Positions 24,339 to 57,028 of a stretch of 64,000 nt of DNA are shown in pieces. The stretch is from NCBI GenBank assembly GCA_045657265.1, contig JAZOSU010000035.1, positions 44 through 64,043 on the forward strand, given 5' to 3'. Position numbers and translations under genes: made by a program. Source of the DNA: Eubacteriales bacterium (GTDB lineage Bacteria > Bacillota > Clostridia > Oscillospirales > QAKW01). Numbering within the stretch: the stretch's first letter is position 1; the number at the start of each line of letters is the position of its first letter. Below the pieces are notes generated by a model. The model was not told the origin of the DNA, did no database searches, and saw nothing but the letters and a program-made list of their open reading frames with translations.

Positions 24339-27300
24339 TTATTTAAGGATATAGTCTTTGTGGAAGATAGATACGATTACAGAAACTTCTGCTCTTGTTG
24401 CTGTATCCTTAGGAGCAAATCCTGTATCTTTACCTGAAACTATACCTGCCATCTGACAAGCGTAAACTTCGTTTTTAGCCCAAGTACTGATTTTAGCATC
24501 GTCAGGGAATGTAACTTTGTTTACAGCTTTCTTGAGTGTAATCTTCTGATAATTTGCATAACCTACAAGCATTACACACATCTGCTCACGTGTAATTACG
24601 TCTGTAGGAGCAAATGTTGTTGCAGATGTACCGTTTACAATACCGTTATCTGAAGCCCATTTAACTGCGGCTGCATACCAAGCGCCTTCTTTAACGTCAG
24701 TAAACTTAGTTTTAACGTTATTGTTTGTTGTTTTAACGCCTGACATATTAGCAAGTACCTGAACGAATTCAGCTCTTGTAATTGTCTTTGTAGGTGCAAA
24801 TGTTGTATCAGATGTACCGTTCATAAGACCGTATGTTACAGCGTAATCAACGTATTCTTTATACCAGCCTTTAGCATCAACGTCTTTGAATGTCTTAGCT
24901 GAGTTTTCAAGACCTGTCTTTGTACCGGTAGCTGTTACTGTGTTTTTATTTCCGCAAAATTCACAAGTAGCTGTCTTTGTACCGTCTTTAAGAGCAGTGG
25001 CATCACCGTTGTACTTATATGCGCCGTATACGTGTGAATCATTCTTAAAGTTGCCTGTTTCTTTAACAGTCTTGGTTTCACTGCAGCCATTTGTATCACA
25101 TTTAGCGGTCATCTTACCGTCAGATACACAGTTTTCAGAACCTTCAATATGTTTATAGTTTGTAAAGCTATGTGTCTTAAGAATGCTCTTAATAGCTTCC
25201 ATATCAGTTATAAGACTGTCATATGCTGCTTTACTTGCTACTGTTTCAAAACGTTCTTTTGCATTTTTCAATGCTGTTTTAAAGTTTTCAAATGTGTTTT
25301 CGCAGTATTTACCGTTATCGTTATTAACTTTTGAAAGTGAAAGTGCAATTTCGTCATATTTTGTACGGGTTAAAGCTTTACCTGCTTTGATAGCTTTTTC
25401 TATTTCAGCAGCAGCTTCTTCCATGGCTTTCTGACCAAGTTTATCTTCAACAGTCTTCCAACCAGTGTAAACTGCATCATCTAAGCTTTCTTTAAGTGCA
25501 GGAAGCCAGTTTGAAGTATCGGTATCATCTGCTTCGTTAAGAACAGGAATAATTACATCTTCTGCTCCCAGTTCGCCTCTTGTTACTACAATTACGTGCT
25601 CAACTTTAGCACCGCCGAATTCAACTGTTACCTTGTACTCTTTTGTTTCGCCAATGCCAACGCTTACGTTTGTAACCTCTTGATTTCTTGCGTTAAAGAA
25701 TTTAACAACTGAACCGGCAATTTTACCTGTACCTACAAGAGCTTCGTCTTTACCGTCTTTACTGAGAAGTACAGAGAATTTTCCGTCCTCTTGTTTTGTA
25801 GCCTCATTGCCGCCAACAGTTACTGTATCCAATACTGCAATAGGCGGAGTTTTTGTAACAATTATGTGATACTCCTTGTACTTTGTAGCATCAGAGTCGA
25901 GAGATAATTTAAGATATACGGGAATCTCATTAAGAGGAGTTGTAGCTTTTGTTGTAATTTTCCAACCGGCAGTAGTTTTCTGATTCGGTCGTGCCGGATG
26001 TGTTACTACTGAAGTTTCAAGCGGGATATCCATTGTTATTTTATGTGAATCAAGAACTTCTTTGTACAAATTCTTAATAACTAATGTATATTCATATTTA
26101 GAAGATGCATTCACTGCTTCTGTATATACCCCATCAGCTGTTTTACCATCTGCATCAAGATTATTTACGTGGTAGTAGTACTTACCGTTTATCTCATAAA
26201 TATCATCGCTTACAAATTCAAGAGGAATAAGTTCGCCGGCTAAAGATTTCTTTTCTGAATCTGTATAGTAGCTATCAGATTGAATAGTTTTGTTTGTTGA
26301 GACAAATTTAAGCTTTACACCATTTGAATCGGGTAATTTTGTAGGAATAGTTGAAATAATATAGTTTTTCTCAGCAACGCTGCTGTCAGATACTTTTCTG
26401 CCAACATCAACAGTTGTATTGAAACCGATAAGTACGTTATCTGTTATTGTAACAACCATATCTTTAACGTTATTACCTGTATAGTCTTTACCAACAAGAG
26501 TCATACCCGCTGTTGATGCATGAATATAGTTGTTTTTAATGGTTAATTCGTTATGGAAATTATGTTTTGCATCAAGAAACATTGATGCCGAATAAAGATT
26601 GTACTTATAGAAAATATTGTTCTCGAGAACAATAGCTTTTCTGTCGGTATTGTTTGGATTGAACTGAGCGTAACGATCGTTATGTCCCTGAATAAGCATT
26701 CTTTCATTAAAGTTTCTGATGTTACTGTTTTTGATTGTAAATGAGTAATCATCATAAGGAACTGTCAGATAACGATCAGCTGATGCCATTTTTGAGTTCT
26801 TCGCATGGTCAACATAAAGTCCGTCAATTGTAACATGTCTCCACAGATAGTTATCTGAATTTGCAAACAGACCAAACTTTGAAGAATTGTCAAGATATAC
26901 GTTCTTGAGTGTCATACTATCGTTATACTGGTTTATATCGGTAGTATGTTTGTTTGATGTTTCTTCTTTATATGTGCTACCGTTTTTTACATATCTTTTC
27001 TTGAAATGATTGCCCAGCAAAAATCCGGCATATTCTTCACCACTAATCGGAGCTTTCTTCCAGTAAAGATTTTCAATTTTAACGTTGATATCATCTTCAG
27101 GTGATCTTTCGGGATCACCGGCATTGCCTAAGTCATCCTGAATAACACCTTTGAGAGTAAATCCGTAAAATTCGTAATTACCTTTAACGGCTGTGTTGAA
27201 TTTAAGCCAGGTAACCGTAATACCTTTGGTTGTATCAAATGCATCTGCTTTACCTGTATTAACGTTTGATACCCAATCAGAGCCGTCCTGTTTTGTGCCT

Positions 27301-30300
27301 TTAACGTACGGCATCTTGTTATAGTTTCTTGTAAAGTATTTACCGGGGTATTTTACTTTCCAGATATTGTAATTTGTATTACCTGAAGCTCCACCAAGGT
27401 CTTTCAAAAGGAAGTTTGGATCTTTAATATTATTTGATTTTGCATATTCAATAGCAGCTTCAAGAGTATCAAAAAGGTTTTTGCCCTTTACAAAGACATA
27501 CACCGTATCATCTGCCCATGTTGTTGAAACCGCATAACCGTCTTCAGTTGATTTAAATTCATTTGTTACAAGAAGAGCTTTTGTTGAATCAATAAGGTCA
27601 TCTGTAAAGTTTGCTACAAATGTATTACCCTGACCTGCTGAGCTGAGTGAATCTTTTGATACAAGGTGTACTTTGTATATAGAATGAAGCTCAGGGTTTG
27701 ATTTAACATAGATTTTAAGATATGCAGGACAGTTATCAACTGTCATATGTGACATCTGAGCCGATGTAATCTCAGTTGTCATAGCCTTGTCGAAATACCA
27801 TTTAGCATCTGCTATTGTCGGAAGTTTGATTTCAAGTTCTGCAAGTGTACCAACACCGTATGTTTCCATACCTGCCATAATCTTGCCGCCAAAGTTATCA
27901 ATTTTAACTAAGGTAGCATCGCCTTTAAACTTAGCAGAAATAGGTATGATATTTGTGTTAAGAATCTTTCTGTCATAATCAAGATAGTAATCTTTACTTA
28001 ATAATCCGTCAAGAACAAGGTTTGAACCTACTATTGATTTATCATCAGTTGAAAGATTTGTTATATAGTTGCCTGAAATTTCTGATGATGTACCGATAGC
28101 TCTTGAAAGTCCGTAACCGTCAATACCAAGAATAATGTTATCTTTAATTTGAAGGTTTAAATCATTTGACGGAACTGATGTTGTTCCTGTAACTGAGAAA
28201 AGTGTTCTTGATGTGCCGTTTGGTGCGGTAATATAGTTATTTGTAAGAACAAAACTTGAATAGTTTGCGTAGTTAGCTGAATAGAAACCGAACAGACCGT
28301 ATTTCTCTTCTTTTGTTATTGTACCTGTTGAGAAGTTATACAAAATGTTGTGGTCAAATGAAATCTTTGAGTTAGCACCATAAGTTTTATCATCTGCATA
28401 ACCCCTGAAATGGAAAGCAAAGCTACTGTCTGCTTTCATATTTCTAATGTTACAGTTTTTAAATGTAATTGAGTTGCTTGAGTTATTCTGTTTAATCAAC
28501 CAGTTACCGGGTGTGTTGCCGTTTCCGAGATTATCAAAGTCGATAAACAAACCGTCGATAACTGTTGTTTGTGGAAGAAAGTTTGCAGTAAACTGCATAT
28601 TTCCTGCTTTGTAAGAAGACTGGAAATACATATTATTAAAGAGCGCTTTATCTCCTGAAATACCTTTGGTACTGCTGAATTTGATAGGCTGATCAAGAGT
28701 ATCATTCATAAGAATGTTTGCAAAAACAAAGTTTGTTGCTTTGTCTGATGCGTTTCTTCCAGTAGCATTAATTCCGCCGCCTACCTGAGATACTGTAGTA
28801 GATGTTTCTGTAACTGTTGTTTTCTTATATGAAACAAGCTCAAGTCCGTGTACTTCAAGAGCAGGATTAACAACACCTGTAATTTTAATACCGCCTACTG
28901 TTCTCTTGTTTTTATCGTAAGCTGTATTATATGTCCAGGCTTTATCTCCTGTACCGTCGTTAAGTCCTGCGTCTTTTGTCCAGCCTTTGTTATCAAAAGG
29001 TGAAACATTATAGTTAGGAGCGTAGATTTTTGCAGAATGTGAAATGATTATTTCTTCTGTAGGTGCATTGTAATCAAAGTAGATTACAGGTGTTGCTACA
29101 TCACAGACATCTGCATATTCAAAAACATCATCAAGATTTGTAAATGCATTTACACCTTTAATAAAGGTATATGTTTTTCCGTCATATGGAAGTTTGTACT
29201 CAAAGGTTGTGTAATCTTTATATCCTGAAACTTTTGCATATCTGTTTGTTACAAGATATATATCTTTTGTAATTGTATCGTCGCCTTCGAATGTTTCTGA
29301 GAAAAGGTTTGTACTTGTAATTACTTTTACAGTATATACAAGTGTTTTTTGAGTTTTACTGCTTGATACTTTTACGTAAAGTGTCTTATCAGTTCCGCCT
29401 TTAACTGTTGAAATATCAACTGCGTTTGTACATTCAGCGTTTGTATACCATTTGTACGTTGCGCCTTCGGGAACAGTAAAGCTGATTTTTGCAGTTTTAT
29501 CTTTGGGAAGATTATAAATTATTGTACGAGTATTCTGATTAAGATTAGCCGAGCCTTCGTTTGCTGTAACATTTGAGATTTCTACAGGCTCAAGGTCTGT
29601 ATTGAGCACAGTCATTTTCTGGTCAATGTAGTATGATGTACACTCGTAATCTGTATCAGCATCTATTATTACTTTTTTACCAACAGCGTTTTCGCTGAGA
29701 GTAAATTTCTTATAAGTATAGTTTTCTTTGATTACTGATTCGGGGCTGATAGTACGACCGGCAGCTTTAGTTTGCAAGGTTGTATCAACGCCGTTAAGAT
29801 AGTTGCCTACGATTTTATATACGCAAGGGTTACCGCCATCAGCCTGTTCTGAAAAAAGCGAAATCGGAACCGAAGATAAAACTCTGTTATTTATAAAATT
29901 AATATGTGAATACGATTTTGATGATACGTGCATCAAAGATTTGCTTGAAAATCTGAAATCAAAGAAAATATTATTTTCAAAATTAAGTGTTCTTGATTCC
30001 ATTGTTGAGGGGTCAAAATTTCCTTCGTTTTTACCCTGGAAAGTAAATTTGTTGTTATAACTTGATCTGAAGTTAGAGTTTTTGAAGGTCATTACAGTCT
30101 GCTGGTTGTTGTTGCCCTGTTTTATCCAGTTATCAGTATATGAGAAATTAACTGTTGGTGTTAAAAACATACCGTCAAAAGTCACTGTATCAACATACCA
30201 CTCTGTCAAAAGACGGATAGTACGTACAGTTGTATTGTTTGAGGTAAGTATAATATTTTTAACTTCAAGTGATGAACCTACAGAAGATTTAGCCTGAGCA

Positions 30301-31016
30301 AGTGCATCTGCTGTAAAGAGCGGATTCAAACTACTTGAAAGAACTGCGCGTGAGTTCTGAAGTTTAACGTTTGTTACAGGCGAACCATCAATAGTTGACA
30401 TATTGAACTGGCCTTTGAAGGTGAAACCGTAAAGACCGATTTCTCCGCCCACTTTGATGTTAATTGCTGATACAGTCTGTGATTTTTTAGTAAATTCAGG
30501 GTTTGCTACCCAGTCAGAGCCGTCAAATTCTATAGGAAGCGCATTACCTTCAGCGTCTTTTGCGCCGATGGTATAAGGCATTGTATTATATGCTTCTGTA
30601 TAGTAGTTTGCAGCACGAGTAATTTTAAGGTCTATCTGTGAGCCGATATTTTTAACAAGGATAGCAGAGCCGTCTCTTGCAAGTTCCTGTACTTCGTTTA
30701 TATCTTTGAAGACAGTCTCGTTTACTTTAAAACCTTCGTATTTTTTGCCGTCCCATTCAAGAATATAGGGTTCAGTTGCGTTTTTGTCTACAACGTAGCA
30801 TTTACCCTGTCCTAAAAGTCCGTTTATATCTATTGTTTCATTGGTTGTGGGGTTTGGTCCTGCTGTAACAGCATTTGAATTTGTTGCACTGCCACTGCTT
30901 AAGTAACCTGCTTCTGTCTCTGTTATAACCTCACCTGCAAAGGCAAAGGATGACAAAGATGACATCAACATAGCAAGGCAAAGCAGTACAGAAAGCAATC
31001 TTTTACTTTTATTCAT
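24339..31016 (-). CDS. Giant SLH-anchored cell-surface protein (2,225 aa) with three beta-helix-like modules; paralogue A
   Basis: Uninterrupted ORF with signal peptide MNKSKRLLSVLLCLAMLMSSLSSFAFA. Three modules, each with 'Y(T/A)x(A/N)YNxxP(Y/F)', 'YGF(T/A)', 'DG(L/M)(F/Y)', 'KN(S/C)N(I/F)R', 'ENNIF(F/Y)', 'NNY(I/L)' and 'DN(I/V)(I/L)(L/I)G'. Cys/His-rich segment, then three SLH repeats ('FKDV..GWYKEYVDYAVTYGLMNGTS..TFAP..ITRAEF', 'FTDV..WYAAAVKWASDNGIVNGTS', 'WAKNEVYACQMAGIVSGK'). Confidence 0.92.
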   Translation of the reverse strand: MNKSKRLLSVLLCLAMLMSSLSSFAFAGEVITETEAGYLSSGSATNSNAVTAGPNPTTNETIDINGLLGQGKCYVVDKNATEPYILEWDGKKYEGFKVNETVFKDINEVQELARDGSAILVKNIGSQIDLKITRAANYYTEAYNTMPYTIGAKDAEGNALPIEFDGSDWVANPEFTKKSQTVSAINIKVGGEIGLYGFTFKGQFNMSTIDGSPVTNVKLQNSRAVLSSSLNPLFTADALAQAKSSVGSSLEVKNIILTSNNTTVRTIRLLTEWYVDTVTFDGMFLTPTVNFSYTDNWIKQGNNNQQTVMTFKNSNFRSSYNNKFTFQGKNEGNFDPSTMESRTLNFENNIFFDFRFSSKSLMHVSSKSYSHINFINNRVLSSVPISLFSEQADGGNPCVYKIVGNYLNGVDTTLQTKAAGRTISPESVIKENYTYKKFTLSENAVGKKVIIDADTDYECTSYYIDQKMTVLNTDLEPVEISNVTANEGSANLNQNTRTIIYNLPKDKTAKISFTVPEGATYKWYTNAECTNAVDISTVKGGTDKTLYVKVSSSKTQKTLVYTVKVITSTNLFSETFEGDDTITKDIYLVTNRYAKVSGYKDYTTFEYKLPYDGKTYTFIKGVNAFTNLDDVFEYADVCDVATPVIYFDYNAPTEEIIISHSAKIYAPNYNVSPFDNKGWTKDAGLNDGTGDKAWTYNTAYDKNKRTVGGIKITGVVNPALEVHGLELVSYKKTTVTETSTTVSQVGGGINATGRNASDKATNFVFANILMNDTLDQPIKFSSTKGISGDKALFNNMYFQSSYKAGNMQFTANFLPQTTVIDGLFIDFDNLGNGNTPGNWLIKQNNSSNSITFKNCNIRNMKADSSFAFHFRGYADDKTYGANSKISFDHNILYNFSTGTITKEEKYGLFGFYSANYANYSSFVLTNNYITAPNGTSRTLFSVTGTTSVPSNDLNLQIKDNIILGIDGYGLSRAIGTSSEISGNYITNLSTDDKSIVGSNLVLDGLLSKDYYLDYDRKILNTNIIPISAKFKGDATLVKIDNFGGKIMAGMETYGVGTLAELEIKLPTIADAKWYFDKAMTTEITSAQMSHMTVDNCPAYLKIYVKSNPELHSIYKVHLVSKDSLSSAGQGNTFVANFTDDLIDSTKALLVTNEFKSTEDGYAVSTTWADDTVYVFVKGKNLFDTLEAAIEYAKSNNIKDPNFLLKDLGGASGNTNYNIWKVKYPGKYFTRNYNKMPYVKGTKQDGSDWVSNVNTGKADAFDTTKGITVTWLKFNTAVKGNYEFYGFTLKGVIQDDLGNAGDPERSPEDDINVKIENLYWKKAPISGEEYAGFLLGNHFKKRYVKNGSTYKEETSNKHTTDINQYNDSMTLKNVYLDNSSKFGLFANSDNYLWRHVTIDGLYVDHAKNSKMASADRYLTVPYDDYSFTIKNSNIRNFNERMLIQGHNDRYAQFNPNNTDRKAIVLENNIFYKYNLYSASMFLDAKHNFHNELTIKNNYIHASTAGMTLVGKDYTGNNVKDMVVTITDNVLIGFNTTVDVGRKVSDSSVAEKNYIISTIPTKLPDSNGVKLKFVSTNKTIQSDSYYTDSEKKSLAGELIPLEFVSDDIYEINGKYYYHVNNLDADGKTADGVYTEAVNASSKYEYTLVIKNLYKEVLDSHKITMDIPLETSVVTHPARPNQKTTAGWKITTKATTPLNEIPVYLKLSLDSDATKYKEYHIIVTKTPPIAVLDTVTVGGNEATKQEDGKFSVLLSKDGKDEALVGTGKIAGSVVKFFNARNQEVTNVSVGIGETKEYKVTVEFGGAKVEHVIVVTRGELGAEDVIIPVLNEADDTDTSNWLPALKESLDDAVYTGWKTVEDKLGQKAMEEAAAEIEKAIKAGKALTRTKYDEIALSLSKVNNDNGKYCENTFENFKTALKNAKERFETVASKAAYDSLITDMEAIKSILKTHSFTNYKHIEGSENCVSDGKMTAKCDTNGCSETKTVKETGNFKNDSHVYGAYKYNGDATALKDGTKTATCEFCGNKNTVTATGTKTGLENSAKTFKDVDAKGWYKEYVDYAVTYGLMNGTSDTTFAPTKTITRAEFVQVLANMSGVKTTNNNVKTKFTDVKEGAWYAAAVKWASDNGIVNGTSATTFAPTDVITREQMCVMLVGYANYQKITLKKAVNKVTFPDDAKISTWAKNEVYACQMAGIVSGKDTGFAPKDTATRAEVSVIVSIFHKDYILK

Positions 31017-31121: not shown

Positions 31122-34100
31122 TTATCCGACCATATACTTTTCGTGGGAAATGGAAACGATAACAGCAACTTCTGCTCTTGTTGCAGTGTCCTGAGGACAG
31201 AAGCCTGTATCTTTACCTTCTACGATGCCTGCCGCTTTACATGCATAAACAGCGTCTTTTGCCCAGCTGCTTATTTTTGCATCATCTACAAATTTTGCAA
31301 CTTTAGCCGATGTATCTACTTCTACTTTTGCATAAGCTGCATATCCAACAAGCATTACACACATCTGTTCACGAGTGATTACTGCTGTCGGTGCAAATGT
31401 TGTATCAGATGTACCGCTTACGATACCTTTTTCTGATGCCCATTTAACAGCCGATGCATACCAAGCGCCCGATTCAACGTCTGTGAATTTACATGTCACT
31501 TTATTGTTTGATGTGTCAACACCTGACATATTTGCAAGTACCTGTACAAATTCAGCTCTTGTTATTGTCTTTGTTGGTTCGAATGTGTCTTTTGATGTAC
31601 CGTTAAGAAGACCGTATGTTACTGCGTAATCAACGTAGTCTTTATACCAGCTCTTTGCAGGAACGTCTTTGAATTTCTTAGACGAATCTATAGTTGTAAG
31701 TTTTGTATTTTCAGCAACTACTGTATCTTTTGCTTTTTTACATACAGTACATGTTGCTGTTTTTGTTCCGTCTTTTTCAAATGTTGCGTCGTTATTGTAT
31801 ACATATTTGTCAAATGTATGTTTGCCTGTTGCAAATTTTTCTGTTTCTGCAACTGTATCTTTTTCTTCACAACCTTTGGTTTCACATTTTGCTGATTTTG
31901 TACCGTGGCCAACACAAGTTTCAGTGCCTTCGTCGTGCGTATATGTCTTGAACGTATGTTCGCATACGCCGTCAATAGCTTTCTGAAGATTTGTCATTAC
32001 TGCGTTGTATTCACTCGCTGTTGAAAGTGTTTTTACTTTGCTTTCGGTGTTTTCAATGGTTGTCTGTAATGCTTTGAATGTAGGCGTACAGTATTTACCG
32101 TCTTTATTCTTGATTCTCTTTGCGTTCTTTATAAGAACTTTATACTCGTCTTCTGAAACAGCATCATTAAGAATCTGTTCCATCTGTGAAGCATAAGCAT
32201 CTGCCTGTGCCTGAGTAATGGAATCTCTGCCTGTTTCAAGAACGACTTTCATTTTAGCTCTGAGAGTCTGATATGCTCTGTTAAAGCCTTCAAGCCAGTC
32301 TTCTGGGTCTATTGCATTGGTTTTGTTGTAAACTTCTTCAAATTTTTCAAGGTCAGCGCCGCCTCTTGTAATATCAAGGTCAAGAACCAAAGTAATACCG
32401 TTATATGTTACAGAAACTTTGTACTGCGCAGATTCAAAGTTTGAAATGTTTACTGTATCTGTAGGATTACCGTTTGCATCAGTTATTGCAACTGTTGAGC
32501 CTTCCATAACGGGAGTTGCAACTATTTTTTCTCCGCTTCCTCTGCCGCCGAGAACTACTGAATATTTACCGTCTTTAAACTCAGCAGTTTCACCGCCTAC
32601 AGTAAGAGTATCTACTGCGGGACCTTCTTTAACAAATTTCACTTTATATTCAATAGGTGTCGCTTCGCTCTTATCATCAGGAGCGCATACTGAAAGATCA
32701 AGCTCGATAGGATAGTTAAGCTCCACATCTGTATCTATCCACATAATATATTGCATATAACCGGTAAATATCTTATTATCCGCCTCAGTACTTCCGAGTA
32801 ATACATAATCAAGAAGAAGTCTGTTGCCGTATTTATTGCTGACGATATGTGAAAGGTTGATTTTGTATGTATAACCTTTTTCTGAATTTTTAATTTTCGT
32901 GATACCGGCATCGTCATCGCCTTTTACAACGTAAGTAATAGTTTTGTTTTCTTCGTCAACTATAACGTTTTCACCTGAGAAGCTGTATTTATTAATATCT
33001 GTAGGACGTCCTCTCATTTCGGAGTCGATATAATACTTACCCCAGTCTTCGCTGTCAGCTTTAGGAAGTGATATTGAAGATCCGCTCATTGCTTTAAGTT
33101 GCATACCGTCGTATGTCACTTCGTCAGTTGAGTAACTTTCTCTTACGTAGTTGTTACGTACGTAAGATGTATTTGTAAGTGTTCTCAAACTACCTATAGG
33201 CATACGGTCTGAACCGCAGTTGATTTTATTGCCTTCAACCTGAAATTCAAGCTTAACTGAAGATGAACCATCACTTATGTTTCTGAAAAGATACATATCT
33301 TCTTTCTGATTTATGATGGTGTTGTTTTTAATTATAATTTTTGACCATGCTTTGCCGTACGCAGGGAAAATAGTATCTGAGAAGAAGTAAGAGTTGTTCA
33401 TAATGTTATTTGAGAACTCTAAAAGTTTATCTTCGCCTGAGGCAATTGTTTCGTTGTTCGCCTGATTATGAAATGCATTCTGACCAAAATTTTTAAAGTG
33501 TGAATTTATAATACGGAATGAGGCTGTTGCTGTATTCTGCTTCATATATGTTTCACCTGATGTATGGTGACCGCCTACAAAGTACACGCCGTCAAACAAA
33601 ATGTCAGATGCCTGCCAACCTGTTGTAAATCTTGCAGCTGTACCGTTTGAGTTAAGGTAGCAGTTTTTAAATGTAAGATAATCTTCAGTGCTTCCTTTTG
33701 CAGCATTTGTATCGCTGTTACCACTCATCAGGAAAGCATCGCTCCAATTAAATGAGTAATAACAGTTTTCAAAATAGAGGTTTACGCAGTTAAGTCTTGC
33801 AGTCGATCTGGTGTTATCTTTAATACCGCCTTTGAAAGCAAAACCGTAGAATTTATAATCACCTGCTGGAACGTTACCGTCTAATGTAACTGTACCGAGA
33901 GTAATACCTTTTTGGGTATCAAACTGACCTGCGTTTGAACCGATATTTTCTTTCCACTGGTCAGCTTCCATTGTAGGATCGCCGATATAAGGTTTGGTTG
34001 CGTAATTTACTGTATAGTATGATGCAGGATATGTGGGTTTCCAATTACCTGTAACTGTATTTGAACCACCAATATCCATAAGAACAATTTCAGGATTTTC

Positions 34101-35987: not shown

Positions 35988-36049
35988 ATTAATACCTCTC
36001 TAAAGTTGATTTCTCTCACATAGTATAGTTGTGGGAATTATACAGTTTT

Positions 36050-36078
36050 ATTATAAAAAATCTAATTGCAAATGTCAA
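36050..36078 (-). promoter_or_regulatory. Consensus sigma-A promoter of paralogue B
   Basis: Minus strand reads TTGACA (36078-73), a 17-nt spacer, then TATAAT (36055-50). About 60 nt upstream of the ATG at 35987, which is preceded by AGAGAGG. Confidence 0.6.
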
Positions 36079-36294
36079 GAAAATATATAACTTTAGTGGT
36101 GCTGAAAAGTACGTTCATATATTGTGCAAAATGCCCTGTAACAATGCGGTTTTTAAGGTGTCACAACTATATTTTGTGTATGATATTTATATGCACACAA
36201 AAAGACTGTAAAAAGTTATAAAAGCATACGGCTTTTGCGATATTATATTAGTGCCATTTGGCACGTCAAAAGCCGTATATCGCATCGAATATAG

Positions 36295-36326
36295 AAGAGG
36301 CACACTTCTTAAGAAGTGTGCCTCTT
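36295..36326 (-). terminator. Perfect 32-nt palindrome downstream of paralogue C (terminator-like)
   Basis: AAGAGGCACACTTCTT|AAGAAGTGTGCCTCTT. A second nested hairpin follows at 36227-36279 (ATACGGCTTTTG ... CAAAAGCCGTAT with inner GTGCC/GGCAC). Confidence 0.5.
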
Positions 36327-48225: not shown

Positions 48226-48238
48226 ATTTTTTCTCCTC

Positions 48239-48586
48239 TTATTCTCCAAGATGTTCCATTCCCTGAGCAAGTATACTGCAAACGTGATTATCCGCAAGAG
48301 AATAAAACATCGTTTTTCCGTCTCTTCTGAATCTTACAAGATTTGCGCTTTTAAGTACCCTGAGCTGATGCGATACCGCAGAAACAGTCATTTCAAGTGC
48401 TTCCGCAATTCCGCAAACGCACATTTCACGGCTTTCAAGAAGCAAATACAGTATTCTGATTCTGGTGGAGTCGCCAAAAACCTTAAAAAGCTCTGCAAGA
48501 TCGTAAAGACTGTCAATGTCAGGCATCTGCCCAACCACTTTTTTAATAAAATTGCCATGCTCGTGAGTATGCTTTTCAATCTCCAT
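48239..48586 (-). CDS. ArsR/SmtB-family metal-sensing repressor (CadC/CzrA-like)
   Basis: 'LFKVFGDSTRIRILYLLLE.EMCVCGIAEAL.MTVSAVSHQLRVLK.ANLV...R.GK...YSL'. His-rich N-terminus 'EKHTHEHG'. The start chosen at 48586 lies downstream of the operator. Confidence 0.88.
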   Translation of the reverse strand: MEIEKHTHEHGNFIKKVVGQMPDIDSLYDLAELFKVFGDSTRIRILYLLLESREMCVCGIAEALEMTVSAVSHQLRVLKSANLVRFRRDGKTMFYSLADNHVCSILAQGMEHLGE

Positions 48587-48616
48587 ATTTTCCCCTGCCA
48601 AACACATTTGAAACTT

Positions 48617-48667
48617 ATTTGAACAGTTGTTCAAATGTTATTATATCACTAATGGCGTATAAGTCAA
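48617..48667 (-). promoter_or_regulatory. Promoter plus 12-2-12-type ArsR/SmtB operator of the metal operon
   Basis: Inverted repeat ATTTGAACA-GT-TGTTCAAAT (48617-48636) lies immediately downstream of a minus-strand TATAAT (48645-40). TTGACT (48667-62) sits 16 nt upstream of that. Confidence 0.6.
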
Positions 48668-49183: not shown

Positions 49184-52100
49184 TTATAAGCTTTCGCTGT
49201 AAGCACGAGCTGATCTACCGTAGTTCATGAGAGCTTTAGCAATGTTCTGGAGATTTTCGTTGCCGAGTGTGATAGCTTTATTAGCGTAAGATTCAACACT
49301 GTATGCAACTGTATCACTTACATATGTATCGCCGTTCATGAGTGTGAAGTAGAATACGTCGTCTACCTGTGATACGTTGAAGTCATCGAAGTAGATCTGG
49401 AATTTGCCGTCTCTGTATACGAAGCAGTCTGTAAGAACTTCTTCGTAGCCGTAATCGTCATAAACTTCGAGGCTGAGGTCAGAGAGAGTAGCAGCATCTT
49501 TATCTGTGATATCGAAACCAAGTTTTATATCGATAGCTTCGTCAAGGTAAAGACCTATTGATTTCCATTCTGTCTGTTTATCAGCTTCATCAACGTACAT
49601 AAATTCTTTGTTGAGGTTATCTTCTGTTTCAACGTCTGCGATAACTTTTTCAGCATCTGTAAGACCTGCGTTAGCAAGGTTTTCAACGTTGTAACCTCTG
49701 TACTGCTGAGCAGCAGCGCCATAGTTGAGTGTATCAACTACGAGTTTTGTAAGAGTTTCATTATCTGTGATAGTTTCTTTGATCTGATAGAGGTAATCAG
49801 CCATTGAAGTTTCGTATGTTGCGATAGATGTATCTGCTACTTCGTCAACAGTTGCGTAGATAGTAGCTTTAATAACATCTTTCATACGGTGAGGAGCAAG
49901 ACCGTCGAAGCTGTATACGATGTAATCACCGTCTACAGTACCTTCTGTTACTTTATATGTCTTACCGCAAACTTCAAATACAGCATATACGTCTTTGTAC
50001 AATTCAGTACCAAGAGTCTTGAAGTTCATTGAAATGTCGTTGTAAAGTGTAGCTGAAACTTTTTCAATTTCAGGTGTCGGCATTTCGCCAACTACGAATT
50101 TAATTGTACGTGTCTGAACGTCGCTTTCGCCGTCAGCTGCCATTACTTTGAGGTAGATAGCTGCTGTATCAAGAGCAATAGCTGTTACGTCTTCGATAGC
50201 CTGAGTCATCTCAGCATCAGCGTAGAATTCTACAACGTTGTATTTGTTAACAAGATATTTGTTAAGGTCGATTTCTGTTTCTGTGTACTTAACTTCTACG
50301 TTAGCAACAGCGCCGTCTTCGTCGAATGCTTCGCCGTTTACTGTCATAGCGTGAACAACATTACCTGCCATTGTATCTTCGATGTCAACACGGAAGTTTG
50401 CATCTTTGATAACTGTTTCGCCTGAGATGAAGGTAAGAACTTTACCACCCATATCAACGAGTGCAGTCATATTGTTGTCAAGTGATGAAGCGCTATCAAG
50501 AGCGCGGTCTGTAACGTGAATGTTTTCAAAACCGATAAGTACGTTATCTTCTACAGTAATCTTAAGAGGTGTAGCTGAAGTTGCATCTTCTTCAAATACT
50601 TCGTCTTCTCTTACGAAACCATCTTCATCAAGATCGTCGTAATCTGCGTGAGGTACAACTTTGATAAGTTCAGAGTTGATATCGTTAACGATTGTGTTGT
50701 TAACGAGTGATACGTCTGTGTACTGTCCGTCAATTTCAATAAATGCATCCTGACCGAACCAAACGTTTCTCATAATGTTGTTTTCAAGCACGATAGCGTG
50801 TTTTGAAGCTGTTGTATCAGTTTCACCTGAAATTACAGCAAATGTCATTGCCTGTTTGAAGTTTGCAAGGTTAGAATTCTTAATAGTAATTGTACTGTTA
50901 AGAAGGTGCATATGAGTTGCAGGTTTTTCATCAAATGTAACGCCTGCTTCTACGTTTTTATCAGTGTCGTTTGTATCGTCATCCCAGTCACTGTCGTCAA
51001 GACCTTTACCGTCAAGGAAGATACCGTCGAGTGTAAGGTTTGCTGCTGTGTCTGATGGATAAACAAGCGCACGTTTCTGGTCATTAGCTTCAACGTAAGA
51101 ATTCTTAACGTAGAGTGAACCGACAGCTTCTCCGCCTGTTGTTCTTGCATAGTCACTGTGTGAATGGAACGGATATTCCTCTGTTTTGTGGTTTGTAGGA
51201 TCAGCGGCATAACCGTTTTCAATGTACATGTCTACAGCACCGAGGGCATCGCCTTTGCCACAGCTATTCTGGAATGCACCGGTTACTGCAAAACCGTAAA
51301 GCTCGATTGTACCGTAAGCCATATTTGGAGTAGGTTTAATCCATCTTGCAACGATGCCGTTAGCGAGTTCGTATGCAGGATTAACTGACCATGTGCCGTC
51401 TTGTGCAACAACGTAAGGAACGATGTTGTAGTTTTCTGTGTAGTAAGCGCCGTGGTATTTAATCTGCCATTCGCGTATACCTTTTGTTCCGTAATCATTT
51501 ATATCAGGTTCGCCTGTTGCATCAGAACTGATTGTCTTAAGAAGTATGTGCGGGAATTCTACGTTTGCAGTAGCAAGATATGTGTTAAGTTCTGCAATTG
51601 TTGCGAATACGTTAATACCTTTAAGGAAGTCGTATTCAACACCCTGCCATGTTGTTGTATAAAGTGAACCGTAACCGGCACCATTTGAACCAAAGTCAAC
51701 GAGGAATGCTTTAGAAGCATCTATCTTAGTTTTGATAGCATCTGTAGCAGGTGCTTCGTATACGTCAACAAACATATTGTCTGTTTCAACGATAATTACT
51801 ACGTCGTATACGTTGTAAACTTCAAAGCCTTCGCTGTTTGTAGCAGAAAGTTTAAGGTAAACTGTACCTGAAACTGCATTTATGTCTTCAACTTCTTCTG
51901 TAAGAGCTTTGTCAACGTACCATGTAGTTGTTACGTCTTTATCTGTATTGTAAACAATGTTTGATTCATCAAACTTAGGTGCTGTATAAACTGCAGTAAA
52001 TTTGTTGCCAACTACTGAAAGTTCAGCGCCTGACCATTCTTTAATGGTAAGGTCTGATGCAAGGATTTCTTTAGCAGGATCAAGGTAGTAGTCACCGCCA

Positions 52101-55100
52101 ACTACGTTAGAAACGCCGTTGAAGAATTTACCCATTTCATCTGCTGAAGATGCTGTATAGTTGTTAGCTATCTGTGAATCTGATGTACAGTTACGAACAG
52201 ATGCACCAACTTTACCGTTAAAGCCGATAAGTGTATTGTTGCTGATGTCAAGTTTTAAATCAGCAGAATCAATAACATCATTCTCTTTAGTTGCTGTAAC
52301 CATAAAGTTGTAGTTTTTGCCTTCGTTGTTTACATAGTTATTTGTAAATGAGAATTCATTGATAAACTGTGGTTTAACCGGTATGAATTCTGCTCCGCCG
52401 AAGTCATAATTTACAAAGATATTGTTGTCAAAGATATATTTCTTTGAACCCTCGCCAATAGCTTCACCATCAGCGCCCTTAAGACTGTTGTAACCTTCAA
52501 AGTATGTTTGTGCTTTGTCGGTACCGCCTGTAAAGAATGAGTTTTTGAATGTAAGTGAGAACTCATTGTATACCTGCTGGAAGTATCTTGTAGCGTTTTC
52601 TGTATCCTCTTTAACAACGTTTTCCTGTTCGTAAACAGGGTTACCCTTGTCGTCTATTTTTTGTTCGCCTGTTTCTTCATCAATAACAGGAATAGGTTGG
52701 CCGTTTTCATCAAGCTTATTCTGTTTTTCAGTTTTGGTAAGATACTGTTCTGAGAAGTCAGCATAAAGACCGTCAAAGGTCATATCTGCCCAGCCCTGAT
52801 TTCTGAGGAATGTTCTTGAACCTTTACCAAGGTAGTAAGAATTTTCAATTGTAAGTGAATCACGGTTTTCTGTGTTTGCAATTCTTTTTGAATTTTTAAC
52901 AGTAAGGATGTATTCCGGTGCGCCTGTACCTTCAAAGTAAGAGTTTTTGATTACAAGGTCAATTTCACTTGTATCGTCTGAATGATAACGATCATCAAGA
53001 ACGTAACCTGCAATAGTAAATCCGTACAATTCGTATTTACCTGAAACAGGTGGAGCTTCTTCTTTCTGTTTATCTGTTTTATCGCTGCTCTTGAAAGTTA
53101 TGTTACCTGCTTTGATTGAGTTGTCAGGATTGAACTGGCCTTCGCCTGTGCCTATGTTGGATACCCAACCGTTACCTTCGCCATCACCCTTAATGTAAGG
53201 ATTTGTAGCGTAGTTAGGTGTGAAGTATTTACCCGGTCTGCGAAGAATATATTCAGATTGTTTACCACCGTAGTAGTCACCGATATACTGACCCCATTCA
53301 CTTGCACCGATGAGGTATTCGTCCTTGCCTTTATTGTAAGCATTTTCAACTGTACCGAAGAGGTTTGTATTGTAAACAGCAATATACTGCTGACCATTCC
53401 AGGTCATTGCTTTATAATCACCGCTACTGAGTGTTTTTCCGCCTTCGATAAATTTACCGTAGTAACCCGATGCAGCTTCGTATGTTATGTCACCGTCGAT
53501 AAATGCAGCATTTGAAGGATCTATAAGACCTGCTTCGTCTACAAAACCACCTGAAAGATGAGGAATATCTTCAAGAGTTGTTTTTGCTGAAGGATGTGTA
53601 GGTACGTTAAGACCTTTATCATTACGAGCGTATGTTGATGCTGCGTAACCTGTAATTGTATTAGGAAGCACTGTTACATTCATTGTGATTATAATATCAC
53701 CCATTGTAACTTTAGCTTTGTAGTTTTTACCTGTACCTACAGATTCTTTTGTAACAGTCGCTGCATCAAGGGCTGAACCGTCTATATTTGCCCAAGTAAG
53801 AACTGCATCATCGCTTAATGTTTCTACGTCAGCAAGAGTTTTACCTGTTGAGAGATAGATTGTAGCTTTTAAACCGTCTTTGTAGAAACCACCGCCGGGT
53901 ACTGTAAATTTAAGAGCAGATACATACTGCTTAGAAAGTACAGCTTTCTCATAATCAAGATAATAATCTTCTGAATACAAGTTAGCTTTCTGTGGTGAAT
54001 TATTTGTTACTGTGAAATCTTCACCTGTAGCTGTTACGCCGTCAGCAGGGTCGTCACGTGTTGATGTAAGGAAGTTGTAACCAACTTCTGATTTTGCTTT
54101 GTCGTGATAACGGTTGATACCGATTGAATCTTTGATACCGATAAGAGTGTTGTCCTTAACTGACACTATGATATCAGGATGTGTATCGCCCGTGGTATCA
54201 CTTGCGTTAAGTAACGGGGTATTTGCTTTTCTTGAATAAATTTTATTTCCGTCGAAAACAAATTTATTAAAGTTACCAAGGTGGAAGTCACCAAAAGTAT
54301 CCTCAGTGTAAAGTGAGAAATTATAGAAGATATTGTCAGAAATGTTAAGAACTCTGCTTTCCGGTTTATCTCTATAATCTGCACCTTTACCGTAACGTCC
54401 TCTGATATAAAGAGGCATTACGCCGTTTCTGAAGTTAGAGTTTTTAATTGTAAATGAATATTCAGCACCGAGCTGATGGAGATAAGCAGCATGCGTACTT
54501 GTATATGTTCCTGTAAAGTCTGCAAATACACCGTCAAAGGTAATATGTTTTGCAGGATACTCATCACCGTGGAATATACCTCTGTAAGATGCTGATTTAT
54601 CTGATTTAGTTGTTAATTCAAGATATGAATCTTTGAATGTCAAACTATCATTATAAGCATCTGCGCCAGCAACAGAGTCGTATTCTCCGCTTGCGATAAA
54701 TGCTTCTGTTGTAGGTTTAAGATATGAATTAATTAACGAAAGATTGATTGGTTTATCGGATTTTCTTGTAGTTTGACTTGTACTGCACATTTCAATTGTA
54801 AGTGCAAAAGCAAATCCGTAAAGTTCAAAATCGCCGCCTCTGTGTGCTGTACCAAAGCCAACGTATTTACCTGTAATACCGTCTGCTGTGTTGAATGAAT
54901 CAGCATTGTCTGTATTTATGTTTGATTTCCACTCGAGACCGAATGGGTCTGTAGCAGCGTCTGATTTTGTATAAGGTTTTTTGTTATAGTTTCTTGTAAA
55001 GTACTTACCTGGCATTCTCGGTTGAAATGTAGCCGGAGTATCGCCTTTTGTACCGCCTATATCAAGAATAAGATAATGTGCGTCTGTAATATCGTTTGTA

Positions 55101-57028
55101 TTTGTATATGTCGTAGCATCGTCAAGGGTTTTGAACGCATTGACACCTTTTACAAATGTATAAGATTTACCGTTCCATTCAGCTGTAATTGTTGAAAGGT
55201 TTGCTTGGGTAAATGCATTTGAAACGATAATTGCTTTTTTAGCGTCGATAAGCTCTGCTTCATCCACGAATGAATTTGCAAAGTGTGTACCGTCATCAGC
55301 TGCAACAGTTACTGTGTAATCTGCTGAACATGTTGTACCGCCGATTTCAGCAGATGCAGTTACTGTGTATGTACCTGATGTGATGTCAGAAGCAGCAACA
55401 GTTGCACCTGTTGAATCTTTCCAGGTAAGTGTTTTGCCTGCAAACGCAACGTCAGCAGCAGAACCACCGTTTGCGATATACGCATTAACTTTAAAGCCAT
55501 TAGCATAAGCAAGACCGTTTGCAACAGTTATGTCTGAAGCTTTAACAAACTGTGAAACTTTAATTGACATACCTTCATCGAGATACCAGTCAGAAGCTGT
55601 TACTTTTGATGTATCTTTGCTTGATTTAAGTACGTACTGTTTGCCATCTGTATAGTTATCATAAATCTCATTGCCAAAACCTGTTGATGTAGCAACAGTT
55701 GCATTAAGGGTATCAGGAAGTGTTGTTCCCTTTGCATAGTTATTATATACTCTGAGACTGATTCTTTCAGCATAAGTTGTTCCGGCGATGAAAGGCTTTG
55801 CAGTATCCATAATTACACGGTTTCCTGTAATTATTGTTTTTGAGTAATAGTTATTTGCCACATAAAATGCAGAATTTTTGTTGTATGTACCAGCATTATG
55901 GAACGTATTATTTTCAAAACTAAGAACTCTCAGATCTTCATTTGTTTTATAGCCTGAAACACTTTTATCATTTGCACCGATATACCAGTTCTTTTTTTCA
56001 TAACCCTGTGGAATAAGATCAAGGCCAATGTTCTGAAGGTTCATATTCTTAAATACGCCTTTAGTATTAATTCCTGAACCAAGGCGATCCTGTTTGAAGG
56101 AAGTATTATTATCTGCGTTACCGCTCATTGTTTTGCTTGTCATATAAAGACCGTCAACAATAAAGTTTGATACGCAGTATCCAGTAAAAAGATATTGTGC
56201 TGAACCTGTAATATAGGTGTTTTTCATCAAGAATGTTCTGCCTTCAGATGCTGATTTATTAGCATATGAAGCCATTGCAACAGCAGGTTTTGAACTTGAA
56301 AGCTTATAGCGTGAGTTATAAACTGTAACATCAACAGGAACTGATATAGTATTAAGGTTTATTACTATATTTCCTGAATAAGTAAAACCGTAAAGTTCTA
56401 CTGCGCCTGCATGAGCGTTTTCTATTACATCTACATCGAGTACACCGATATCTGCGGTTTTTGCAGTAAATTCAGCGTTTTCTGACCAGTCAGAACCGTC
56501 AAATGCTGTGCCTGTAACGAAAGGCATTGTGTTATATGCCTCTGTGTACATTTTAACTCTTGTAAATATTTTAGCTGTTTCAGCTGTTACATTTGATTTA
56601 ACAAGAATTGTAGGAGTTTCAACCCATTCTTCATCAACCATAACCTTTGCTAATGCTAAAGCATCCTCAATTGTTGTTGCGAGGTTATAACCAATTTCAA
56701 ACCACGAATATGATTCCGGTTCAGGATCGTCCGGAGTTGGTTCCGGTGTCCACATAGGACCATATTCCTGTCCGTTCCAGTTGAGGATATATTCTTCGTC
56801 CTCTTTTGCATCAGCATCTACAACGATGGTGTTCTCGTCGATTACCGGCGCAGCAACATCTGTTGTAGGATTGGCACCGGTAAGTTCAGCTGCGTTGTTT
56901 ACAACGGGCTCTGCCACGTCACCGGTTGCATCTGTCACTGTCTGGGCGCTTGCAAATGATGTAGCCATCATTGAAAGAACCATTACAAGACAGATAAGAA
57001 CAGATAACAATCTTTTGCTTGTGTTCAT
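49184..57028 (-). CDS. Giant secreted protein (2,614 aa) with four beta-helix-like modules and a non-SLH C-terminal domain; paralogue D
   Basis: Signal peptide MNTSKRLLSVLICLVMVLSMMATSFASA. Module markers 'KMYTEAYNTMPFVTG', 'KYFTRNYNKKPYTK', 'KYFTPNYATNPYIKG' and 'AYYTENYNIVPYVV'. Motifs 'TIKNSNFRNG', 'ISDNIFYNF', 'TIKNSNLANF' and 'EDNVLIGF'. The C-terminal ~320 aa are collinear with paralogue C. Confidence 0.9.
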   Translation of the reverse strand: MNTSKRLLSVLICLVMVLSMMATSFASAQTVTDATGDVAEPVVNNAAELTGANPTTDVAAPVIDENTIVVDADAKEDEEYILNWNGQEYGPMWTPEPTPDDPEPESYSWFEIGYNLATTIEDALALAKVMVDEEWVETPTILVKSNVTAETAKIFTRVKMYTEAYNTMPFVTGTAFDGSDWSENAEFTAKTADIGVLDVDVIENAHAGAVELYGFTYSGNIVINLNTISVPVDVTVYNSRYKLSSSKPAVAMASYANKSASEGRTFLMKNTYITGSAQYLFTGYCVSNFIVDGLYMTSKTMSGNADNNTSFKQDRLGSGINTKGVFKNMNLQNIGLDLIPQGYEKKNWYIGANDKSVSGYKTNEDLRVLSFENNTFHNAGTYNKNSAFYVANNYYSKTIITGNRVIMDTAKPFIAGTTYAERISLRVYNNYAKGTTLPDTLNATVATSTGFGNEIYDNYTDGKQYVLKSSKDTSKVTASDWYLDEGMSIKVSQFVKASDITVANGLAYANGFKVNAYIANGGSAADVAFAGKTLTWKDSTGATVAASDITSGTYTVTASAEIGGTTCSADYTVTVAADDGTHFANSFVDEAELIDAKKAIIVSNAFTQANLSTITAEWNGKSYTFVKGVNAFKTLDDATTYTNTNDITDAHYLILDIGGTKGDTPATFQPRMPGKYFTRNYNKKPYTKSDAATDPFGLEWKSNINTDNADSFNTADGITGKYVGFGTAHRGGDFELYGFAFALTIEMCSTSQTTRKSDKPINLSLINSYLKPTTEAFIASGEYDSVAGADAYNDSLTFKDSYLELTTKSDKSASYRGIFHGDEYPAKHITFDGVFADFTGTYTSTHAAYLHQLGAEYSFTIKNSNFRNGVMPLYIRGRYGKGADYRDKPESRVLNISDNIFYNFSLYTEDTFGDFHLGNFNKFVFDGNKIYSRKANTPLLNASDTTGDTHPDIIVSVKDNTLIGIKDSIGINRYHDKAKSEVGYNFLTSTRDDPADGVTATGEDFTVTNNSPQKANLYSEDYYLDYEKAVLSKQYVSALKFTVPGGGFYKDGLKATIYLSTGKTLADVETLSDDAVLTWANIDGSALDAATVTKESVGTGKNYKAKVTMGDIIITMNVTVLPNTITGYAASTYARNDKGLNVPTHPSAKTTLEDIPHLSGGFVDEAGLIDPSNAAFIDGDITYEAASGYYGKFIEGGKTLSSGDYKAMTWNGQQYIAVYNTNLFGTVENAYNKGKDEYLIGASEWGQYIGDYYGGKQSEYILRRPGKYFTPNYATNPYIKGDGEGNGWVSNIGTGEGQFNPDNSIKAGNITFKSSDKTDKQKEEAPPVSGKYELYGFTIAGYVLDDRYHSDDTSEIDLVIKNSYFEGTGAPEYILTVKNSKRIANTENRDSLTIENSYYLGKGSRTFLRNQGWADMTFDGLYADFSEQYLTKTEKQNKLDENGQPIPVIDEETGEQKIDDKGNPVYEQENVVKEDTENATRYFQQVYNEFSLTFKNSFFTGGTDKAQTYFEGYNSLKGADGEAIGEGSKKYIFDNNIFVNYDFGGAEFIPVKPQFINEFSFTNNYVNNEGKNYNFMVTATKENDVIDSADLKLDISNNTLIGFNGKVGASVRNCTSDSQIANNYTASSADEMGKFFNGVSNVVGGDYYLDPAKEILASDLTIKEWSGAELSVVGNKFTAVYTAPKFDESNIVYNTDKDVTTTWYVDKALTEEVEDINAVSGTVYLKLSATNSEGFEVYNVYDVVIIVETDNMFVDVYEAPATDAIKTKIDASKAFLVDFGSNGAGYGSLYTTTWQGVEYDFLKGINVFATIAELNTYLATANVEFPHILLKTISSDATGEPDINDYGTKGIREWQIKYHGAYYTENYNIVPYVVAQDGTWSVNPAYELANGIVARWIKPTPNMAYGTIELYGFAVTGAFQNSCGKGDALGAVDMYIENGYAADPTNHKTEEYPFHSHSDYARTTGGEAVGSLYVKNSYVEANDQKRALVYPSDTAANLTLDGIFLDGKGLDDSDWDDDTNDTDKNVEAGVTFDEKPATHMHLLNSTITIKNSNLANFKQAMTFAVISGETDTTASKHAIVLENNIMRNVWFGQDAFIEIDGQYTDVSLVNNTIVNDINSELIKVVPHADYDDLDEDGFVREDEVFEEDATSATPLKITVEDNVLIGFENIHVTDRALDSASSLDNNMTALVDMGGKVLTFISGETVIKDANFRVDIEDTMAGNVVHAMTVNGEAFDEDGAVANVEVKYTETEIDLNKYLVNKYNVVEFYADAEMTQAIEDVTAIALDTAAIYLKVMAADGESDVQTRTIKFVVGEMPTPEIEKVSATLYNDISMNFKTLGTELYKDVYAVFEVCGKTYKVTEGTVDGDYIVYSFDGLAPHRMKDVIKATIYATVDEVADTSIATYETSMADYLYQIKETITDNETLTKLVVDTLNYGAAAQQYRGYNVENLANAGLTDAEKVIADVETEDNLNKEFMYVDEADKQTEWKSIGLYLDEAIDIKLGFDITDKDAATLSDLSLEVYDDYGYEEVLTDCFVYRDGKFQIYFDDFNVSQVDDVFYFTLMNGDTYVSDTVAYSVESYANKAITLGNENLQNIAKALMNYGRSARAYSESL

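Follow-up and report, generated by a model that had tools for sequence, protein, structure and literature searches.

Giant putative surface proteins built of tandem predicted beta-helix modules, encoded in a Clostridia locus and apparently members of a rare sequence family

Beta-helix domains that bind ligands at the cell surface are known from gut and mucosal Firmicutes, for instance in the adhesins SRRP of Lactobacillus reuteri (PDB 5nxk/5ny0) and PfbA of Streptococcus pneumoniae (4mr0), and the beta-solenoid of SRRP binds glycoproteins and polysaccharides (PMC5866549). In Apilactobacillus kunkeei, consecutive genes beside rsmG encode the giant extracellular proteins Giant1-5, diverged paralogues with beta-solenoid domains which were read as adhesins, and in Giant1-4 a single solenoid at the N-terminus is joined to a long rod of alpha-helices and to a C-terminal end that is SH3b-like and binds the wall (PMC12863079). 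Here we describe four giant proteins, designated A, B, C and D, that are encoded in a 64,000-nucleotide stretch of DNA from Eubacteriales bacterium (assembly GCA_045657265.1, contig JAZOSU010000035.1, positions 44 to 64,043; hereafter the window), and that carry between the signal peptide and the C-terminal tail two to four tandem modules, each predicted to form a right-handed parallel beta-helix.

Comparison with the known systems indicated that SRRP and PfbA, as surface-displayed, non-catalytic beta-helix binding domains, are probably the closest functional analogues of the window giants, and that the A. kunkeei Giant1-5 are a further one. In the Foldseek search of two modelled modules (see below), SRRP 5nxk stood at rank 1 for model 1 (a weak match, E 0.2), and PfbA 4mr0 was listed for model 2. 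SRRP carries one solenoid together with serine-rich repeats, an accessory Sec (aSec) signal and LPXTG, whereas the window giants carry 2-4 tandem solenoids, ordinary Sec signals and SLH domains. The classification of the giants as SRRP was rejected, given that they lack serine-rich tracts (the Ser content of A-D is 6-9%), an aSec signal and LPXTG at the C-termini. The A. kunkeei Giants resemble the window proteins in that tandem giant genes take a large share of a locus near rsmG (in the window, mnmG and rsmG are located at 61029-63648), but the window giants are made of tandem solenoids plus beta-rich linkers and end in SLH domains or a novel tail, and were therefore not classed with the Giants of A. 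kunkeei; no sequence relationship is expected. Taken together, the fold, the mode of display and the likely role appear familiar, and the giants seem to represent a sequence family that is new and unusual in its tandem layout rather than a new kind of system. The features that set this family apart are 2-9 tandem solenoids per protein, SLH or a novel tail in place of LPXTG or SH3b, the lack of a serine-rich or alpha-helical rod, and the lack of detectable described relatives.

The four giants are encoded by uninterrupted open reading frames (ORFs) on the minus strand, which were reproduced with the lengths and positions given in the initial annotation (for details see Table 1) and which occupy about 40% of the window. 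The initial annotation had counted a 1,958-aa protein (946-6822) among the giants, and with this ORF included the share is 32,496 bp or 50.8% of the window, as claimed, but the 1,958-aa protein carries no module and turned out to be an unrelated protein with Flg_new/Listeria-Bacteroides repeats. The near-identical start MN(K/N/T)(S/A)KRLLS(V/L) was confirmed for A, B and D, and MNxxKRLLS is also present in orthologues elsewhere. In all four giants, 2-3 basic residues precede a strongly hydrophobic stretch of 15 residues (Kyte-Doolittle 2.4-2.9), after which comes an AxA-like cleavage site, and a strong Shine-Dalgarno sequence (AGAGGG, GAGAGG or AAGGAG) is located 6-9 nt upstream of the ATG. 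The prediction of secreted or surface proteins agrees well with the signal peptides in all four and with three SLH domains each in A and B. The combination of signal peptide and SLH triplet suggests that A and B are Sec-exported, SLH-anchored surface proteins of the type known in Firmicutes; in C and D the signal peptide is present and the SLH triplet is absent. It is hardly credible that these genes are an assembly artefact or decaying pseudogenes, that is, long ORFs without function, even though the contig is metagenome-assembled and each of A-D forms a singleton cluster, without a protein name, from a single contig of 131.5 kb. Uninterrupted ORFs of 4.9-7.8 kb are impossible by chance in DNA of 38% GC, Shine-Dalgarno sites and signal peptides accompany all four, the structural models are confident, and this explanation is effectively refuted by collinear orthologues with syntenic flanks in independent assemblies.

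For detection of the modules we employed an iterative hidden Markov model (HMM) search (jackhmmer) seeded with one module, and identified 13 homologous modules of about 400-500 aa, three in A, two in B and four each in C and D. Eleven clear and two degenerate copies had been counted before, in good agreement with domain E values of 1e-50 to 1e-249 for 11 modules; the two degenerate ones are the N-terminal modules of C. The number of two to four modules per protein also stands, but the proposed module length of roughly 450-650 aa was found to reflect a pitch of about 520-590 aa, which is composed of one beta-helix module and one beta-rich linker of 85-160 aa. The ordered motifs W.G..Y.F, YNxxPY, YGF, DG(L/M)Y.D, KNSN, ENNIF.N, NNY and DN.LIG were all seen in the alignment of the 13 modules. 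As to the two subtypes proposed, the YTEAYNTMP(F/Y) type is indeed the first module in A, B and D, and the GKY(F/Y)T.NY type was found in A3, C4, D2 and D3, whereas B2 and D4 match it more loosely.

The structure of two modules was predicted with AlphaFold2 (AF2). Model 1, for module A3, gave a mean predicted local distance difference test score (pLDDT) of 74.9 and a predicted template-modelling score (pTM) of 0.80 with an alignment of the 13 window paralogues only, and model 2, for module D2, gave a pLDDT of 85.3 and a pTM of 0.88 with an alignment of 51 sequences, among them modules of related loci. In both models, the W.G..Y.F..G.N.F...A flank forms a hairpin-helix cap, and short beta-strands at regular intervals come after it. 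Foldseek matches in PDB and BFVD were almost all right-handed parallel beta-helix proteins, including tailspikes of the HK620/P22 type, polysaccharide lyases (PL1 and PL6), glycoside hydrolases (GH28/49/55/87/110) and the adhesins SRRP and PfbA. The best E values were about 0.01-0.02, none being below 0.01, and the template-modelling score (TM) was at most 0.37; no close structure was found. The fold proposed in the initial annotation is thus supported by both models and by a list of matches that are nearly all of the pectate-lyase fold, and the module is predicted to adopt a right-handed parallel beta-helix (pectin-lyase-like) fold.

By sequence, the module appears to be a member of no described family, in agreement with the earlier statement that no characterised family could be named: neither Pfam, with single modules at E<=10, nor NCBIfam provided one. 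Pfam searches gave no module-family match for the whole giants at E<=0.01 and noise only for single modules and tails at E<=10, and no module belongs by sequence to Pfam Beta_helix, NosD or Pectate_lyase. HHalign comparison of the module profile with P0130, which carries canonical Beta_helix/NosD domains, gave 4.5% probability, indicating no relationship. With the pectin-lyase-like clan (Beta_helix PF13229, NosD PF05048, Pectate_lyase, PbH1) the modules share the predicted fold, coils of about 25-35 residues, an Asn ladder and an 'xNNxIxN'-like coil motif, but they differ from it in that no Pfam model of the clan matches them (E<=10) and that TM to its solved members is at most 0.37. The profile of the 13 modules matched the PL6 enzyme AlyF in PDB with E 0.009 over about 120 residues, a match that was gone with a 52-sequence profile. 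A GH110 enzyme was matched with E 0.086; both matches are marginal and rest on the generic coil motif. The lowest Foldseek E values, 0.019 in PDB and 0.010 in BFVD, were obtained with phage tailspikes and capsule depolymerases (HK620, P22, Klebsiella phage), but with TM of only 0.2-0.26, and the giants, unlike these, carry signal peptides and, in A and B, SLH domains, and lack a particle-binding N-terminal domain. We rejected phage tailspikes as an identification for the giants, whose neighbours near mnmG/rsmG are chromosomal housekeeping genes and whose N-termini are signal peptides.

Residue conservation was mapped on an alignment of 280 family modules. An Asn ladder stands out at HMM positions 147, 182, 237, 272, 300, 331 and 356 (76-98% Asn), spaced by about one coil, and the other best-conserved columns are G121, P78, W90 and aromatic residues. 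Acidic columns near 78% are only D206 (in DG-Y-D) and D390 (in YYLD), and the columns of Lys, Arg, His and Glu reach 53% at most. Judged from this map, the conserved residues appear to be structural ones that hold the solenoid together, and the modules seem to share no catalytic signature. PL6 lyases (AlyF-OU02 5z9t, AlyGC 5gkd, Patl3640 7o7t) are the best profile match in PDB and give Foldseek probabilities of 0.72-0.75, among the higher ones, and AlyGC likewise contains two beta-helix domains, but their alignment to the modules covers just four generic coils. The AlyF sequences 'ISIKS' and 'LRHG', which we take to be the catalytic Lys and Arg motifs of PL6 (SxKS and RHG), align to weakly conserved or gapped module columns. 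Membership of the module in PL6 was rejected because these motif positions are not conserved.

The modules of the window are mutually only 13-37% identical, and the best match of each one is the same-position module in an orthologue from another genome. Thus, C1-4 match modules 1-4 of P0009 at 45-51%, D1-4 match modules 1-4 of P0006/P0005 and modules 1-3 of P0010 at 33-47%, and B1-2 match modules 1-2 of P0018 at 39-41%. Because the module order is collinear with that of orthologues in other genomes, the architectures appear to be old and vertically inherited. In a neighbour-joining tree of the modules, tentative for its deep branches and made without bootstrap, A1, B1, D1 and the first modules of their orthologues form an N-terminal-type clade, and A3, C4, D2 and their orthologues form a GKYFT clade, whose members come third in A, fourth in C and second in D. 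A third clade joins A2 and C3, so that the block A2-A3 parallels C3-C4 behind different N-terminal modules. The initial annotation had proposed module duplication and shuffling; ancient block rearrangement is in line with this tree, but the low identity and the collinear orthologues speak against recent shuffling. Recent shuffling or gene conversion was rejected at the maximum inter-module identity of 37%, and it is plausible that modules were duplicated and blocks rearranged long ago and that the result was then inherited vertically. D and its orthologue in the related loci L086/L087 are collinear over the full length at 38% identity, as compared with 65-83% for the syntenic flanking genes. 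On the basis of this difference, the giants appear to evolve much faster than their flanks, in the pattern of fast-evolving exposed proteins.

At about an even chance, we consider the giants to be glycan-binding adhesins or a surface coat, in the form of wall-anchored or secreted beta-helix fibres. The four genes would encode long, rigid cell-surface fibres that are exported via the Sec pathway and that consist, past the signal peptide, of 2-4 tandem units, each being a right-handed parallel beta-helix of about 11 coils that starts with a hairpin-helix cap at its N-terminus and leads into a small spacer of beta-sandwich-like form. The rise of a beta-helix is 4.8 Å per coil; with about 11 coils, as estimated from the strand pattern of the models, a module would be about 5 nm long and a protein would reach tens of nanometres. 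A and B would be tethered non-covalently to a cell-wall polymer through the three C-terminal SLH domains, and C and D would be either released or held by their own C-terminal domain of about 350 aa or by another partner. The solvent-exposed faces of the solenoids would diverge fast while the conserved residues hold the solenoid. From this combination of structural conservation and fast-diverging exposed faces we infer that the modules are less likely to be one conserved enzyme than to offer variable surfaces to which glycans or other surface ligands bind (on food particles, in host mucus or on other microbes), or to form a coat that protects the cell.

Several observations weigh against the proposed role in binding or coating. 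Most of the solved beta-helix proteins matched are enzymes, several relatives of the giants fuse the module to hydrolase domains, which hints at substrate processing, and C and D carry no recognised anchor. In the GKYFT clade (10 modules), moreover, K675, E735, D794, D832, D837, R973 and D1025 are at least 90% conserved, and these charged residues leave room for a subtype-specific active site. The main alternative, possible though doubtful, is that the modules are catalytic domains of one or more undescribed PL or GH families and the giants multi-catalytic, wall-anchored depolymerases for dietary, host or microbial glycans. The beta-helix is the scaffold of PL1/3/6/9, of GH28/49/55/87/110 and of phage tailspike depolymerases, which dominate the Foldseek lists; the marginal AlyF and GH110 profile matches, the clade-specific D/E/K/R residues and the fusions in the family to GDSL/SGNH esterases (one with CE2_N), Metallophos and Exo_endo_phos domains point in the same direction. 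However, no catalytic residues are shared across the module types, the PL6 positions are unconserved as described above, the clade-conserved charged residues are scattered without clustering over about 350 residues along the whole solenoid, and the sequence matches rest on the generic coil motif. The context of the window is one of housekeeping genes, with no sugar transporters or regulators nearby and no polysaccharide utilization locus, carbohydrate-binding module or dockerin. A more elaborate form, in which the module founds one or more new CAZyme families and the giants are 'beads-on-a-string' multi-depolymerases, each module type acting on another linkage alongside the esterase and phosphoesterase domains fused in relatives, and with the SLH paralogue perhaps phase-variable via an invertible promoter, appears unlikely. 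Few genes of gut anaerobes are as poorly annotated or evolve as fast as those for giant surface proteins, which probably decide adhesion, feeding and recognition. If glycan binding is true, the module would be a new adhesin scaffold for SLH-bearing Clostridia; if catalysis is true, it would represent new CAZy families in an unusual multi-catalytic layout.

The linker of 85-160 aa after each module ends in a strand pattern of the 'Y.V.V' type, and a relative shows a faint Cadherin-like match; the linkers may be small beta-sandwich spacers. The tails of A and B, composed of the helical/Cys-rich region and the SLH domains, are 47% identical over 535 aa, and the C-terminal domains of C and D, about 350 aa in length and without any Pfam or PDB match, are 44% identical. 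Among 139 family proteins, SLH is the commonest tail (54), the helical/Cys-rich region of the A/B type occurs in 30 and the C/D tail in 8, and none carries both SLH and the C/D tail. With respect to the wall polymer, the window encodes a WecG/TagA-type glycosyltransferase (17821-18558, plus strand), which fits the making of a polymer bindable by SLH; no CsaB, the enzyme for pyruvylated secondary cell-wall polymer, was found within the 64-kb window, which is only part of the genome.

Directly upstream of B we identified a perfect sigma-70 consensus promoter, and the SLH paralogue in L086 is preceded by an equally perfect 12/12 promoter about 60 nt 5' of its start, so that two species have such a promoter before the B-type gene. 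The window promoter, the gap of only 105 bp between B and A and the strong hairpin after A suggest that B and A likely form one transcription unit ending at that hairpin. The B promoter is flanked by an inverted repeat in the layout of an invertible phase-variation switch, which we regard as an unconfirmed lead toward a candidate switch: chance alone would produce such a repeat in about 1.7% of randomized intergenic sequences of like composition, L086 does not share it, and no recombinase gene is located near it. An Rfam scan of the window detected no riboswitch or other element, including the c-di-GMP (cyclic di-GMP) riboswitch that controls some clostridial surface proteins. These signals also bear on the interpretation that one or more of the giants, B above all, are the principal protein of the S-layer or surface coat and form the outermost layer of the envelope, in which case the paralogues would be alternative or accessory coat subunits, possibly phase-variable. 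The SLH triplets of A and B, the perfect promoter before the B-type gene in both loci, the flanking repeat in the window and the tandem, fast-diverging paralogues would all fit it, but sizes of 175-290 kDa exceed those of typical S-layer subunits and the repeat is subject to the reservations just given, so that we consider this interpretation quite improbable. The positions of all these features are listed in Table 1.

Table 1. Giant genes, their domains and the associated expression signals (positions in the window, counted from its first letter)
Feature	Position	Strand	Description
Giant A	24339..31016	-	2,225 aa; signal peptide, 3 beta-helix modules + linkers, helical/Cys-rich region, 3 SLH domains
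Giant B	31122..35987	-	1,621 aa; signal peptide, 2 modules, helical/Cys-rich region, 3 SLH domains
Giant C	36359..43588	-	2,409 aa; signal peptide, 4 modules (modules 1 and 2 degenerate), C-terminal domain without Pfam or PDB match, no SLH
Giant D	49184..57028	-	2,614 aa; signal peptide, 4 modules, C-terminal domain shared with C, no SLH
Module A1	29451..30791	-	aa 76-522; N-terminal 'YTEAYNTMP' type
Module A2	27888..29237	-	aa 594-1043; groups with C3
Module A3	26097..27566	-	aa 1151-1640; 'GKYFT' type; AF2 model 1 (pTM 0.80)
Module B1	34470..35777	-	aa 71-506; N-terminal type
Module B2	32847..34235	-	aa 585-1047
Module C1	41945..43411	-	aa 60-548; degenerate; orthologous to P0009 module 1, 46% identity
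Module C2	40568..41722	-	aa 623-1007; degenerate; orthologous to P0009 module 2, 45% identity
Module C3	39122..40351	-	aa 1080-1489
Module C4	37433..38836	-	aa 1585-2052; 'GKYFT' type
Module D1	55430..56791	-	aa 80-533; N-terminal type
Module D2	53813..55219	-	aa 604-1072; 'GKYFT' type; AF2 model 2 (pLDDT 85.3, pTM 0.88)
Module D3	51929..53443	-	aa 1196-1700; acidic insert of ~40 aa
Module D4	50264..51700	-	aa 1777-2255
A, region between last module and SLH	24897..26096	-	aa 1641-2040; beta-rich, helical, Cys-rich; no Pfam match
A, three SLH domains	24342..24893	-	~aa 2042-2225; predicted cell-wall anchor; PF00395 E 1.7e-35, 3 stretches
B, three SLH domains	31125..31670	-	~aa 1440-1621, N-terminal boundary approximate; PF00395 E 7.8e-39, 3 stretches
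C, C-terminal domain	36362..37432	-	aa 2053-2409
D, C-terminal domain	49187..50263	-	aa 2256-2614; same family as C tail
Promoter of B	36050..36078	-	perfect 12/12 sigma-70 consensus (TTGACA-17-TATAAT), directly upstream of B
Inverted repeat flanking B promoter	36017..36178		17 nt; arms 36017-36033/36162-36178, 15/17 complementary, 128 nt apart
Terminator hairpin	24246..24276		bidirectional, 12-bp stem, directly past A stop codon
Palindrome	36295..36326		perfect, 16+16 nt, past C stop codon; candidate terminator

The distribution of the family was analyzed by an exhaustive HMMER profile search of 1.84 billion proteins (E<=1e-3), which yielded 134 representatives with 1-9 modules each and lengths up to 5,410 aa; the module family thus appears to be real but rare. 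A word-indexed protein search gave no match, whether the query was a single module or the profile of all 13, even though its collection contains these very proteins; it seems that Asn/Thr-rich, low-complexity divergent repeats escape its 5-mer prefilter. A metagenome scan with protein A returned generic SLH matches only. The accessory domains of relatives include SLH, Metallophos, Exo_endo_phos, Laminin_G_3, Flg_new (together with the module in P0075 and P0080), Glug, FIVAR and GDSL/SGNH esterases. The relatives of 4,482 aa (P0004 in locus L082; 7 modules) and 5,410 aa (P0003 in L083; 9 modules) also carry Metallophos. Downstream of both lie the same four small ORFs of 172, 158-171, 161 and 228-234 aa without Pfam match, which may be a conserved accessory cassette. 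The host is an uncultured, Gram-positive Clostridia lineage of gut or rumen, the MnmG of which is at best 73% identical to that of any species representative. The closest relative found (L085, MnmG 80%) has module giants beside mnmG/rsmG/parB as well, and modules were found in none of 80 other MnmG neighbourhoods, suggesting a narrow distribution. The collection of about 134 proteins and 280 modules with their boundaries, together with the model, the conservation map and the orthologous loci, is enough for a domain-family entry and for the design of constructs.

The neighbouring genes are mostly of general functions. The 1,958-aa protein (946-6822, plus strand) carries a signal peptide, a CarboxypepD_reg-like domain and Flg_new repeats, and just 3' of its gene lies a 203-aa ORF (6949-7560, plus strand) of low-complexity, glutenin-like composition with a sub-threshold Pfam match only. 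Genes for histidinol dehydrogenase and a HisZ-like protein (tRNA-synt_His) were confirmed by the scan at 9872-17173 (minus strand), and by its ORF sizes this region looks like a histidine biosynthesis operon. The WecG/TagA-type gene is the first of a plus-strand run (17821-24228) that encodes in addition ThyX, thymidylate kinase, LPG_synthase_C, DJ-1/PfpI, a CAAX protease, a HAD hydrolase and an HtrA-type protease. Between D and the C-B-A cluster (43626-48634) are located housekeeping genes for a YfbR-like 5'-deoxynucleotidase, an OGG glycosylase, DUF6062 and a heavy-metal P-type ATPase, the last with HMA and ArsR partners. After the D orthologue of L086/L087, by contrast, come other giants, with only intergenic DNA and one small ORF between. 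The intergenic regions 9470-9542, 17824-18352 and 24383-24780 of L086 contain dense GC-rich palindromic repeats, GGGAGGACCTATGTGTCCTCCC and GGAACGACACACAGGTCGTTCC, like a family of the REP (repetitive extragenic palindromic) type, and these were not seen in the equivalent regions of the window.

Upstream of the D orthologue in L086/L087, the genes for phosphoglucomutase and an AraC-family regulator are intact. In the window, both are truncated: a phosphoglucomutase remnant (58178-58567, minus strand) retains nothing but the C-terminal domain, with 83% identity to aa 384-472 of the gene that is intact in L087, and an AraC-family regulator remnant (58768-59145, plus strand) carries an internal deletion. 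Between D and the decayed phosphoglucomutase gene lies a DUF559 ORF with a Vsr-like endonuclease fold (57490-57915, minus strand). Perfect inverted repeats of 13-14 nt (57471-57484/57967-57980 and 57497-57509/57945-57957) flank this ORF, which may be a small inserted element tied to the local gene decay.

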